Assembly (NCBI GenBank): GCA_038740615.1 | Contig: JAVYLQ010000002.1 | Coordinates: 1-54,383 of the forward strand | Length of the DNA stretch: 54,383 bases | Reading direction: 5' to 3' | Source: Candidatus Anstonellales archaeon | GTDB taxonomy: Archaea; Micrarchaeota; Micrarchaeia; Anstonellales; J096 | Shown: positions 8,613 through 41,393 of the stretch, piece after piece | How positions within the stretch are numbered: position 1 is the stretch's first letter | How the letters are laid out: the number at the start of each line of letters is the position of its first letter | The notes under the pieces: model-generated | Databases searched by the model: none | What the model saw: the letters and a program-made list of their open reading frames with translations, nothing else | What the model was told of the DNA's origin: nothing | Made by a program: the position numbers and the translations under genes

Positions 8613-8980
8613 AGAAGAAAAAGATTCCTGAATTTAAAAATATTGGACCTAGTGATGGTCATAGAATGAAGAGGAGAATAAAGGATAGCTGGAGAAAGCC
8701 TAGAGGTATTGATAATAAGAAACGAGTAAGGGCTAAGCAATACGGTAAATCCCCTAATATAGGATACAAAAATCCTGAAGAATTAAGAGGGATGCATCCT
8801 TCTGGATATTTTGAGATTTTAGTGGAGAGGATTGAACAGTTGAATGATTTGGATAGAAATAGATATGCAATTAGATTGAGCGGTAGATTGGGTAAGAAGA
8901 AAAAGCTCGAGATTCAGAAGAGAGCCCAGGAATTAGGAATTCACATATTAAATCCTGTTAAGGAGGTGAGTTCAAAATGA
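8609..8980 (+). CDS. rpl32e: 50S ribosomal protein L32e
   Basis: SWRKPRGIDNKKR motif and operon position. Confidence 0.88.
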   Translation: MKKKKIPEFKNIGPSDGHRMKRRIKDSWRKPRGIDNKKRVRAKQYGKSPNIGYKNPEELRGMHPSGYFEILVERIEQLNDLDRNRYAIRLSGRLGKKKKLEIQKRAQELGIHILNPVKEVSSK

Positions 8981-31862: not shown

Positions 31863-31893
31863 ATTTAAAAACATAACTATGAACAATAATAAC

Positions 31894-32052
31894 ATGAATA
31901 AGTTCATAAAGGCTAGAATAATTGGGGCCAGAGCTTTGCAATTATCCTGTGGTGCTGAATCTGAACTCAAGAACAAGGTAAGAGATAGTGTTGAATTGAG
32001 CTATTTAGAGTTTTCCAAATCAAAAATCCCATTGGAGGTGAGAAATAGATGA
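31894..32052 (+). CDS. rpoK: DNA-directed RNA polymerase subunit K (Rpo6/omega-like)
   Basis: MNKFIKARIIGARALQLSCGA...KIPLEVRNR matches the RpoK core. A TTTAAAAA box at 31864-31871 is about 30 nt upstream of ATG 31894, favouring this start over 31879 or the track start 31819. Confidence 0.8.
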   Translation: MNKFIKARIIGARALQLSCGAESELKNKVRDSVELSYLEFSKSKIPLEVRNR

Positions 32053-32888
32053 ATCCAATGATATTTATTTTAAGTCTTCTAGTATTGTTATCTGGATGTA
32101 TTGATCTGGGGAGTGGATCCGGAAATACAAAACAGTGTAGTGCTGACAGCGATTGTAAACCATATCAAACCTGCTCTGGTGGGAGTTGTGTATTGAAGGC
32201 TGGTGCATGCGAATCTGATAGAGATTGTGATTTCTACCAGGTATGTGATAGGAGAAACAATCAGTGTATTGTTAAAGAAGGGTTCTGTGTTGATAATAAT
32301 CAATGTAAGCTCCACCAATTCTGCAATCTTACCACAAAGAAATGTGATTTAAGACCTGGTTTCTGTGAGAAGAATAGTGATTGTGAGAGTTGGCAAACTT
32401 GTGATACCAAGACTTTTAGATGTGTAGCAAGAGCAGGATATTGTGTGGATGATAAAGATTGTCAATCTTGGGAGAGATGCGGATTGATGAATAGATGTGA
32501 ACCTCTGCCTGGCAGATGTAATTTAGATGGGGATTGTAAATCCTATGAAAAATGTGATAAGAGATCTAATAGGTGTGTGCCTAAAGAAGGATTCTGCAAT
32601 GTGGATGGAGATTGTAAGAATTGGGAGTATTGTAATAATAATAAATGTGTAGTATTGCCTGGCAGATGTAATTCAAATTCAGATTGTGCCCAGTGGGAAA
32701 CTTGTAATATGAGAAGGAATACGTGTGAGTTGGCTCCAGGTAGATGTGTATCTAACTCCGATTGTCAATCATGGCAATACTGTGATATAGGAGTTAAAAT
32801 GTGTAAACCTCAACCTGGCAGATGTGCAAGCACTCAGGATTGTAGAGAGGGACAAATATGCGATACAATGACGAATACCTGCAGATAA
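32049..32888 (+). CDS. secreted/lipobox-anchored cysteine-rich repeat protein
   Basis: Signal peptide MNPMIFILSLLVLLSGC (lipobox-like LSGC), then ten repeats of C-x5-C-x5-C-x4-6-C-x6. Perfect GGAGGTGA Shine-Dalgarno. ATGA overlap with the rpoK stop. Confidence 0.75.
   Translation: MNPMIFILSLLVLLSGCIDLGSGSGNTKQCSADSDCKPYQTCSGGSCVLKAGACESDRDCDFYQVCDRRNNQCIVKEGFCVDNNQCKLHQFCNLTTKKCDLRPGFCEKNSDCESWQTCDTKTFRCVARAGYCVDDKDCQSWERCGLMNRCEPLPGRCNLDGDCKSYEKCDKRSNRCVPKEGFCNVDGDCKNWEYCNNNKCVVLPGRCNSNSDCAQWETCNMRRNTCELAPGRCVSNSDCQSWQYCDIGVKMCKPQPGRCASTQDCREGQICDTMTNTCR
32136..32885 (+). repeat. ten tandem coding repeats of about 75 nt (4-Cys module)
   Basis: Recurrent DNA strings cctggcagatgt (three occurrences, about 150 nt apart) and gattgtcaatc(t/a)tgg. 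The protein repeat is CxxDxDCxxW/YxxCxxxxxxCxxxPGx. Confidence 0.8.
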
Positions 32889-33361
32889 AGATCTTGACTC
32901 GTAAGAATCTGGATGAAGTCGTGGAATTTTTAGAAGAGGTTCGAGAGTTAGAGTTGGATGAGGATGAAATAAAAGATATAAATGATATACTCGTAGAAGG
33001 ATATAGTTTTGCAGTGTACGATGATGGTGTTCTATACAGTGTGATATTAATGTATGAAGCCAGTTTTGATGGTATACAAATTCTATTTGATGATGAACCT
33101 AATGCCCTATCTGTAGAGCCCCATATCGACTATTCTTATGATAATCTTGACGTTTTAGAAAGAGTAATATTCAGAAATATGAATAGAATAGCTAGTCAGA
33201 ATGGATTTGAGTTCTTAGTTATACAATTGGCGAGAACTGTTCGGGAGATAAGAGATTCTCCTAACGATATAATTCGTTCTATAATAAGAGCTGGATTCAA
33301 ATTTATAGAGGCTCCTGATGATGTTACTATAGCATTTAGAGAAGTGAAATCAGAAGAGTGA
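32858..33361 (+). CDS. hypothetical acidic protein
   Basis: 167-aa ORF that overlaps the preceding gene by 31 nt. No clear motif. Confidence 0.45.
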   Translation: MRYNDEYLQIKILTRKNLDEVVEFLEEVRELELDEDEIKDINDILVEGYSFAVYDDGVLYSVILMYEASFDGIQILFDDEPNALSVEPHIDYSYDNLDVLERVIFRNMNRIASQNGFEFLVIQLARTVREIRDSPNDIIRSIIRAGFKFIEAPDDVTIAFREVKSEE

Positions 33362-40727: not shown

Positions 40728-41393
40728 ATGAGAAACCTATTAGATGCAGAGACAAGAAAGATCCTAACAGATTATCTGAGCAAGATGGAGAGCGAGGTAG
40801 AGCTAGTTGTTATTTTAGATCACAATTCTCCAAATTGTGTTTACTGTAAAGATATACAACAACTGTTTACAGAACTAGCCGAATTGGATATACCTAAACT
40901 GAAGATAACTATATTTGATAAATATCATCCTGAATTTGAAAAGAGATATGGGATACGCGAATCTGATGTTCCTGCCATTGTGTTTGTGAATAATAATATA
41001 AAAGGACAGATAGTCTATAGAGGCGTTCCATCAGAACAGGAATTTAGTGTATTTATAGAGACTATATTAGAGGTATCATTGGGACACATACATATCCCTC
41101 AGGAACAAATAGAGAAATTAAATAGAATTGATAAGAAAATTAAGATAAATGTTTATGTAACTCCAACATGTCCTTACTGTCCAACAGCAGTAGCAATGGC
41201 ATTTGCAACAGCAATGGTTAATCCAAATCTCTCAGCACATGCAGTTGAGGTGACTGAATTTCAGGAAGAGGGAGCTAAATACAATATAAGAGCTGTACCT
41301 ACAATAGTTATAAACGATGGAGCAGTTAAATTTGAGGGAGCATTGCCCTTGGATCGATTTATAGCTAAGATTGAAGAAGCTGCAAAGAAATGA
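40728..41393 (+). CDS. protein disulfide oxidoreductase (two thioredoxin-fold units)
   Basis: Two CxxC sites (CVYC and CPYC) in a protein of about 220 aa, as in the PDO of hyperthermophiles. Confidence 0.8.
   Translation: MRNLLDAETRKILTDYLSKMESEVELVVILDHNSPNCVYCKDIQQLFTELAELDIPKLKITIFDKYHPEFEKRYGIRESDVPAIVFVNNNIKGQIVYRGVPSEQEFSVFIETILEVSLGHIHIPQEQIEKLNRIDKKIKINVYVTPTCPYCPTAVAMAFATAMVNPNLSAHAVEVTEFQEEGAKYNIRAVPTIVINDGAVKFEGALPLDRFIAKIEEAAKK

Follow-up and report, generated by a model that had tools for sequence, protein, structure and literature searches.

A gene in a 54,383-nt stretch of DNA from a Candidatus Anstonellales archaeon (contig JAVYLQ010000002.1, here called the window) encodes a cysteine-rich repeat protein of 279 residues. 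Very probably, this protein is exported through the Sec pathway as a prolipoprotein, lipidated at Cys17 by the AliA pathway and displayed outside the membrane as a rod of ten beads with two disulfides each. In the mechanism we propose, export would be followed by lipid modification of Cys17 (LLSGC, cut before the Cys) via an archaeal AliA-type pathway and by removal of the signal peptide, which would leave a mature protein of 263 residues anchored on the outside of the cytoplasmic membrane. Each of the ten beads, of ~25 residues, would fold into a short turn and a beta-hairpin held together by two disulfides, so that all 40 Cys would be used in 20 disulfides. These are probably introduced by a lipobox-anchored DsbA-like oxidoreductase encoded in the same genome. 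The outcome would be a thin rod, resistant to proteases and heat and of fixed length (ten beads here, 12 in sister families). The likeliest role, by analogy, is that of a constitutive stalk or spacer in the envelope of this Micrarchaeia order, which might for example keep a defined gap to the S-layer or to a partner cell; we put this function forward tentatively, and with clearly less confidence than the architecture.

The gene is found in more than 90% of the sampled genomes of its order and takes up ~4% of the proteome Cys in a very small DPANN genome, and its product is probably important for the envelope. To our knowledge, almost nothing is known of the Micrarchaeota envelope or of how host contact is kept. 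A small, confidently modelled protein with a single type of domain is also an easy target for work on structure, AliA lipidation and extracellular disulfides.

Architecture, conservation and age of the module array

The gene and its parts lie in the window as follows.
32049-32888, + strand: gene of the predicted Cys-rich repeat lipoprotein (Pfam DUF5885); 279 aa, 41 Cys
32049-32099, + strand: predicted signal peptide (residues 1-16) with lipobox L-S-G-C; lipidation and cleavage predicted at Cys17
32136-32882, + strand: ten tandem four-Cys modules (residues 30-278), recognized by Cys spacing and with the Cys invariant in orthologues

An initial annotation of the window had described this open reading frame (ORF), with its length and Cys count, as a chain of ten four-Cys modules. 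Re-reading the sequence confirmed the frame, and the modules are borne out by a Cys spacing that runs regularly as 6,6,5-7,7 from residue 30 to residue 278, so that each module has the form C-x5-C-x5-C-x4-6-C. From first to fourth Cys, modules 1-5 span residues 30-47, 54-73, 80-99, 106-125 and 132-150, and modules 6-10 span residues 157-176, 183-200, 207-226, 233-252 and 259-278. The module consensus is G-x-C-x2-[DN]-x-[DQ]-C-x2-[WYFH]-[EQ]-x-C-x4-6-C, and successive modules are joined by 6-residue linkers of the type x-x-[PAE]-G-x. A short Gly/Ser linker connects the lipobox to the first module, a single residue follows the last Cys, and the protein contains no domain other than the repeats. 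It has one His and no CxxC or CC pair of the metal-site type. Cys makes up 14.7% of its residues compared with 0.56% across the predicted proteome, and this one protein holds 41 of the 965 proteome Cys (4.2%). Its lone N-x-S/T sequon, N-L-T at residues 93-95 (32325-32333), lies in module 3 and is retained as N-[LM]-[TS]-T in three orthologues (L009-L011); it may be an N-glycosylation site, judging by the motif.

Across nine aligned orthologues, with identities down to 38%, neither the lipobox Gly nor any of the 41 Cys varies. The other invariant residues are mainly the linker Gly and the module Trp, together with two Asp and one Glu. The same constraint extends to distant homologues, in which 949 of 950 complete modules (from 150 proteins) retain all four Cys. 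Hence, disulfide pairing could not be read from the joint loss of Cys, given that no paired-loss variants occur among the 950 modules. Selection on the gene is purifying overall: the ratio of nonsynonymous to synonymous substitution rates (dN/dS) relative to the closest orthologue is 0.11, at an unsaturated dS of 0.17, and the corresponding ratio for a neighbouring thiolase is 0.011. Within the genus, every module has an identity of 0.45-0.59. Conservation is thus even along the rod, and the module-wise comparison within the genus revealed no hypervariable or hyperconserved tip.

In public data, the nearest relatives are metagenome-assembled genomes of Candidatus Micrarchaeota/Micrarchaeia, several with Tengchong-style hot-spring sample codes (JZ, DRTY). 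Among the relatives scanned, 37 of 41 carry the gene, mostly as a single copy. A profile scan of the phylum found it in 81 of 201 genomes, and the distribution is strongly uneven: 63 of 68 sampled genomes of the source order have it, again mostly in single copy, compared with 18 of 133 elsewhere in the class; several whole families are without it. The number of modules follows the family, with ten in f1 and f9 and 12 in f6, f8, f15, f19 and f21.

The DNA-level repeats noted in the initial annotation are real: CCTGGCAGATGT is present three times in the gene, at spacings of 150 and 156 nt, and GATTGTCAATC(T/A)TGG is present twice. They had been taken as signs of recent expansion by two-module units, a reading that we reject. 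The repeated 12- to 15-mers code for the conserved PGRC and DCQSW motifs; when the copies are extended to 48 nt their identity is just 65-77%, and Tandem Repeats Finder reports no array in the gene. Modules within the protein have on average 24% of non-Cys residues in common (maximum 44%), whereas same-position modules in orthologues of the genus share 40-68%. Nor is a +2 periodicity seen: modules two apart are no more similar than neighbouring modules. In three of four genus orthologues compared, the best-matching module stands at the same position for nine of ten modules, and in the fourth for five of ten. Exactly 40 Cys follow the lipobox in all eight f1 and f9 orthologues that were aligned or counted. 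The comparison of repeat number proposed in the initial annotation therefore yielded a number fixed at ten or 12 by family and no recent expansion. Because the modules have diverged internally, match by position within the genus and keep a constant Cys count in f1 and f9, the sequences indicate that the array is old and fixed.

Family membership and predicted fold

The initial annotation could assign no family, but the protein matches Pfam DUF5885 (PF19232) with 56 bits (E 5.5e-15) at a cut-off of 33.2 bits. The same profile matches nine of nine aligned Micrarchaeota orthologues at E <= 0.001 (best E 8e-19), and in a scan of the source genome it matches at the repeat gene only. The best stretch aligns residues 17-106 to profile positions 22-109 of the 265-position model, and the other repeats align as separate sliding pieces. 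A second profile, DUF7107 (PF23416), is marginal and driven by Cys spacing, at 26 bits (cut-off 24.6) over a single 22-residue stretch in module 1; it matches five of nine orthologues. Three further profiles stayed below their cut-offs, namely Dickkopf_N (PF04706; 15.2 bits, cut-off 25), TIGR04201 Myxo_Cys_RPT (13.6 bits, cut-off 25) and TraA NF033759 (13.9 bits, cut-off 750), and neither a PA14 head nor MYXO-CTERM was matched in Pfam or NCBIfam. DUF5885 is a catalogued family of undescribed function, and the repeat protein is one more member. Our literature search found no paper that mentions DUF5885, and papers on Micrarchaeota with cysteine, lipoprotein or S-layer topics held nothing on the repeat protein. 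What the present analysis adds is the genus-specific arrangement of rpoK, the repeat gene and orf167, the rejection of recent expansion, the split into ten and 12 modules by family, the lipobox census, and the presence of AliA (DUF63) and DsbA-like lipoprotein genes in the same genome.

A word-indexed protein search returned one relative only (P0001), and exhaustive protein searching and genome scans were needed to reveal the family. The exhaustive search of 1.84 billion representative proteins gave 403 relatives at E <= 0.001. Many of these are long (up to 2148 aa) and bacterial-looking, with a lipobox-like N-terminus. Among the best 150 distant homologues, a crude test finds such an N-terminus in 84, often with the first repeat directly after the Cys. 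Many distant homologues resemble Myxococcota lipoproteins, and some bacterial homologues join the repeats to RCC1 propellers or thrombospondin type 3 (TSP3) repeats. The likeness to Cys-rich repeats of bacterial surface proteins suggested by the initial annotation is thereby upheld, both by these lipobox homologues and by the sub-threshold TIGR04201 and TraA scores. TraA is the cell-cell recognition receptor of outer-membrane exchange in myxobacteria, and its Cys-rich repeats have been proposed to form a rigid stalk (PMC3325183). From its distribution in sequences, the module appears to be a rare and widely scattered building block of exported proteins that, in Micrarchaeia, makes up the whole mature protein.

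AlphaFold2 modelled the full-length protein from a single sequence with a predicted local distance difference test score (pLDDT) of 78.6 and a predicted template modelling score (pTM) of 0.35. For modules 4-6 (residues 104-182), modelled from a small alignment, pLDDT was 92.7 and pTM 0.66. In each module, the prediction places a single bridge residue at C1 and a short helical turn at D-x-D-C2, and C3 and C4 sit on a beta-hairpin. The disulfides may link C1 to C3 and C2 to C4, the pairing of a disulfide-directed hairpin or knottin core.

Foldseek searches against PDB, which the initial annotation had suggested for the module and the array, gave nothing at E <= 0.001 with either the full-length or the three-module model, and a PDB sequence search with the whole protein found no match at E <= 1. 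All weak structural matches are extracellular disulfide domains. They comprise LRP2/megalin repeats, LDLR-A repeats, TNF-receptor Cys-rich domains, Draxin, scytovirin, the Ascaris carboxypeptidase inhibitor (ACI), EGF modules, knottin cores and the Dumpy DPY module. The N-terminal region of Dkk4 was matched at E 0.14, and squash-inhibitor knottin cores matched locally with a root-mean-square deviation (rmsd) of 0.6-0.8 Å over 22 residues at E about 2. When a 26-position module profile was compared with PDB sequences, the leads were 3fju_B (ACI; E 0.012, with a Foldseek probability of 0.84-0.94) and 1oig_A (Drosophila Dumpy DPY module; E 0.15), and both carry the pattern C-x2-D-x-D-C-x5-C-x4-6-C. 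An intracellular metal-binding domain, which the initial annotation had named as speaking against a surface array, was not found: there is no zinc ribbon or metallothionein match in Pfam, NCBIfam, PDB sequences or Foldseek.

With the model of residues 104-182 as query, the best Foldseek matches in BFVD were transmembrane proteins rich in Cys from giant viruses (pithoviruses, pandoraviruses and cedratviruses), at E 1.9e-4 to 1e-2 and a probability near 1, yet with an rmsd of 7-10 Å. We take this as a likeness at the repeat level only; similar tandem Cys-hairpin arrays may decorate the membranes of these viruses.

Candidate export machinery and gene neighbourhood

Residues 1-17 are MNPMIFILSLLVLLSGC; the N-terminus reads MNPMIFILSLLVLLSG up to the predicted cleavage point, which is followed by C. 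The motif L-S-G-C (residues 14-17) is preceded by the uncharged hydrophobic stretch MNPMIFILSLLVL and agrees with the lipobox definition [L/V/I]-3 [A/S/T/V/I]-2 [G/A/S]-1 C+1 (PMC12462473). The presumed signal peptide ending in LLSGC, as initially annotated, stood up to re-examination, and x-G-C follows a hydrophobic stretch in 28 of 28 orthologues read. Pfam LPAM_1 matches the protein weakly (14.8 bits, cut-off 20). A census of the genome found an N-terminal hydrophobic stretch plus lipobox in 12 of 598 ORFs (the repeat protein and 11 others), and the controls gave none in 2004 internal windows and none in reversed sequences. The genome's lipobox consensus is nearly always L-x-G-C-[IL]. Other lipobox proteins are encoded at C9:9919-14028 (-), C1:40071-42749 (+) and C1:25228-26067 (-) of the source genome (G000), and they include a protein of 1369 aa with 47 Cys, one of 892 aa with 25 Cys and a CAP-domain (PF00188) protein of 279 aa.

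The genome also has a candidate enzyme for lipoprotein lipidation. A gene for a polytopic membrane protein at C1:57366-58142 (-) matches DUF63 (PF01889) with 120.7 bits at a cut-off of 25; among control genomes, the profile matches in Haloferax, Methanocaldococcus and Methanosarcina and gives none in Sulfolobus. The annotation of HVO_2859 in Haloferax volcanii places it in the DUF63 family (PMC9426492). This protein is AliA (arCOG02177), on which the lipidation of lipoproteins in Haloferax depends, and the AliA family is reported in Euryarchaeota and DPANN, the latter with prevalent lipoproteins (PMC12462473). Because of the DUF63 match and the annotation of HVO_2859, we assign the gene to a putative AliA homologue.

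For disulfide formation, the likely extracytoplasmic oxidase is a lipobox protein (LVLLGC) of 321 aa with a DsbA/Thioredoxin_4 domain and a CPFC motif, encoded at C16:8250-9215 (-). The Cys left after the lipobox Cys number 40 in ten-module proteins and 48 in 12-module proteins, even in all orthologues counted, which makes full disulfide pairing feasible. Overall, the exported, membrane-tethered and disulfide-stapled array proposed in the initial annotation finds indirect backing in the lipobox of 28 orthologues, the even Cys number, the AliA/DUF63 gene, the DsbA-like lipoprotein and the extracellular structural matches.

Another DsbA-like ORF, which has a transmembrane stretch at its N-terminus, lies at C20:3511-4152 (-). 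Its match to the DSBA/Thioredoxin_4 profile is in reversed order, with the C-terminal part at residues 57-111 and the N-terminal part, with CPHC, at residues 125-175. This order may result from permutation, from fusion of two gene pieces or from an assembly artefact.

The initial annotation had also pointed to a two-CxxC oxidoreductase at 40728-41393 (+) of the window. This protein is as described, with 221 aa, two thioredoxin folds (CVYC at about residue 37, CPYC at 148), a Thioredoxin_3 match of 85 bits and no signal peptide. Its relevance to extracellular folding did not hold: we rejected it as a folding helper, given that the missing signal peptide points to cytoplasmic redox chemistry. 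Cytoplasmic proteins of this kind, like protein disulfide oxidoreductase (PDO), are typical of thermophiles.

The immediate neighbourhood of the repeat gene contains four further features.
31866-31873, + strand: TATA-like box TTTAAAAA, ~28 nt before ATG 31894 of rpoK
31879-32052, + strand: rpoK (RNA polymerase subunit K/Rpb6), 57 aa; Pfam RNA_pol_Rpb6, NCBIfam RpoK
32034-32041, + strand: Shine-Dalgarno-like GGAGGTGA, 7 nt before the ATG of the repeat gene and within the rpoK coding sequence
32858-33361, + strand: orf167, whose first 31 nt coincide with the end of the repeat gene; a downstream partner conserved in this genus only

The upstream gene is identified as rpoK by Pfam RNA_pol_Rpb6 (26.2 bits, cut-off 26) and by the NCBIfam RpoK equivalogs (E 5e-13 but under their cut-offs). 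Its start is probably ATG 31894 (52 aa), which is common to the orthologues and opens the conserved MNKF. The stop of rpoK and the start of the repeat gene do overlap as TGA/ATG in ATGA, as first reported, and each of the six genomes of the genus has rpoK directly upstream with this overlap, at protein identities as low as 50%. However, both adjacency and overlap end at the genus boundary. The initial annotation had taken the overlap as a sign of probable co-expression with rpoK; a functional link between the two genes is rejected because the arrangement is restricted to these six genomes; it appears to be a local accident of gene order, which likely provides constitutive transcription in the genus and says nothing on function. 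The claim that the gene has the best Shine-Dalgarno sequence in the window likewise fails, given that GGAGGTGA occurs twice, the other copy preceding a ribosomal-protein gene at 8962, and that two copies are at chance level (34 of 100 shuffles). Within the genus it decays to AGAGGTGA, AGAGGTCA or AAGGTGG, and since it is located in rpoK codons for the conserved L-E-V, it probably reflects coding constraint in part. In the window as well as in L008, L009 and L010, an A/T box precedes the conserved rpoK start by ~28-30 nt; it is a possible promoter of a transcript of rpoK, the repeat gene and orf167.

Downstream, orf167 has no Pfam or NCBIfam match. Homologues of it occupy this place in L008-L012, with identities of 59-96% in the three closest genomes and 32-34% in L011/L012, whereas in other genera none follows the repeat gene. 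The overlap with the repeat gene looks real because the N-terminus MRY(N/D)D is conserved.

More widely, the repeat gene is set among housekeeping genes, and conserved neighbours across 28 loci gave no functional partner that could be inferred across families. The only neighbour that recurs across families is a HAD-like hydrolase (~220 aa, FDIDDTLFPS motif), just upstream on the same strand in nine f1/f9 loci (L019, L026, L029-L032 and L034-L036); this is probably mere conserved gene order. The remaining neighbours are housekeeping genes that differ between families, Pelota and glutamate dehydrogenase among them. Outside the genus, the repeat gene has its own A/T-rich upstream region in at least two loci (L004, L017).

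Possible functions and known counterparts

A spacer function, our tentative choice, is suggested by several properties together: the protein has no head domain, the bead number is fixed per lineage and conservation is even along the rod, while purifying selection, a mostly single-copy core-gene distribution and the occurrence of related repeats as bacterial stalks fit the same role. A more specific version, which we think rather unlikely, is a molecular ruler, that is, a straight lipid-anchored rod in which the bead number (10 or 12) would set the distance between membrane and S-layer or between symbiont and host. If this idea holds, the lineages with ten and with 12 modules represent a natural experiment.

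Several points weigh against the proposed architecture or function. The n-region of the signal peptide is without Lys or Arg, though most orthologues have one. VKOR and DsbD/CcdA, which would reoxidize or balance DsbA, were not found in the 0.54-Mb, 83%-complete source assembly (GCA_038740615.1). At a full-length pTM of 0.35, the rigidity between modules is not established. The family is absent from ~60% of the sampled Micrarchaeota genomes, so it cannot be a universal envelope requirement of the phylum. Finally, the spacer function draws on analogy and on the fixed module number.

The strongest competitor for function starts from lifestyle. Micrarchaeota are generally held to live attached to hosts, and the lipid-anchored rod of such an episymbiont might bind the envelope of a host archaeon, with the rod itself as the binding surface. 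A reduced DPANN genome, predicted surface exposure and non-Cys residues that evolve ~10 times faster than the neighbouring thiolase would all suit a host-contact adhesin, as would the origin of the closest named bacterial repeat in TraA, a receptor for cell-cell recognition (PMC3325183). However, TraA binds by its PA14 domain and not by its repeats (PMC3325183), and the protein described here has no head or lectin domain. Every module is about equally conserved within the genus, with no hypervariable module or tip, selection is purifying overall, and the gene is mostly single copy and fixed in length throughout an order whose members presumably have different hosts. We therefore consider an adhesin improbable, though still worth keeping in mind. 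An extracellular binder of thiols or metal(loid)s, with the 40 Cys reduced in an anoxic hot spring and chelating or buffering oxidants at the surface, is considerably less plausible again. The very high Cys content, the lack of a VKOR/DsbD partner for DsbA among the genes found and the hot-spring origin of the relatives are in its favour. They are set against a single His, the absence of metal-type CxxC or CC pairs, and profile and fold searches in which no metal-binding domain was matched and all matches were disulfide domains. In addition, the confident model of the module is a hairpin in which the Cys face each other, the same repeat is found in lipoprotein-like proteins of aerobic Myxococcota, and the genome encodes an exported DsbA-like oxidoreductase.

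Two further explanations are suggested by the Cys scaffold and receive very little credence. The best solved-structure leads, 3fju_B and the squash trypsin inhibitor cores, are inhibitors, and the beads might accordingly be surface-tethered protease inhibitors of the ACI or knottin type that shield the envelope against proteases of a host or of the surroundings. None of these leads reaches significance (E >= 0.01), and the likeness is limited to the disulfide scaffold. In the 3FJU study, ACI reportedly inserts its C-terminal tail into the enzyme, and no such tail is present here, where the protein stops one residue past the last Cys; nor is there a conserved exposed reactive loop, as invariance outside the Cys is largely confined to Gly and Trp, with two Asp and one Glu besides. 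We regard an inhibitor as highly improbable. Least credible of all, and already disfavoured, is a cytoplasmic zinc-binding or metallothionein-like protein with an N-terminal hydrophobic stretch that is not a signal peptide. Four Cys per 25 residues could in principle form Zn(Cys)4, and the predicted signal peptide has no basic residue. Yet the hydrophobic N-terminus with x-G-C is conserved in all orthologues read, a lipobox-like N-terminus recurs in 84 of the 150 distant homologues by the crude test, and Pfam, PDB sequences and Foldseek give no zinc-ribbon or metallothionein match.

The exported, lipid-anchored rod has partial counterparts among known systems. At the level of families, the profile length of DUF5885 (265) agrees with the size of the Micrarchaeota proteins, although the match to the 279-aa protein is partial, since repeats can slide against one another. 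The hairpin mini-domains of 3FJU and 1OIG share Cys spacing and motif (KCLSDTDCTNGEKCVQKNKIC in 3fju_B and CVLNSDCPSNQACVNQKC in 1oig_A), but the matches are non-significant (E 0.012 to above 1). These eukaryotic domains occur as single or double modules or mixed with EGF, whereas here ten uninterrupted copies stand on an archaeal lipid anchor. Dumpy uses its DPY modules within a long extracellular fibre.

Bacterial and archaeal surface proteins offer comparisons for the repeat and for the anchor. TIGR04201/TraA resembles the protein in that exported surface proteins carry a short Cys-rich repeat in tandem, with a core like C-x2-D-x-D-C and presumed disulfide bonds. TraA has a PA14 head and a MYXO-CTERM tag, in contrast to the repeat protein, which has neither and carries an N-terminal lipobox anchor instead. 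The AliA/AliB lipoproteins of Haloferax volcanii share the lipobox L-S-G-C after a Sec-type hydrophobic stretch, and an AliA-family gene is present in the genome studied here. Lipidation is demonstrated in Haloferax only, and the substrates there are solute-binding and redox proteins, not repeat rods.

For the function as a spacer, the comparison is with Braun's lipoprotein (Lpp) of Escherichia coli, a small, lipid-anchored and elongated protein that forms a trimeric coiled coil and whose length sets an envelope distance. There is no relation in sequence or fold, and nothing points to an outer partner bound by the repeat protein; the analogy is functional only. The fixed numbers of ten or 12 modules would fit a ruler role, and if that role is true, the protein would be a functional archaeal counterpart of Braun's lipoprotein and the first use of this bead as a pure homopolymeric rod.

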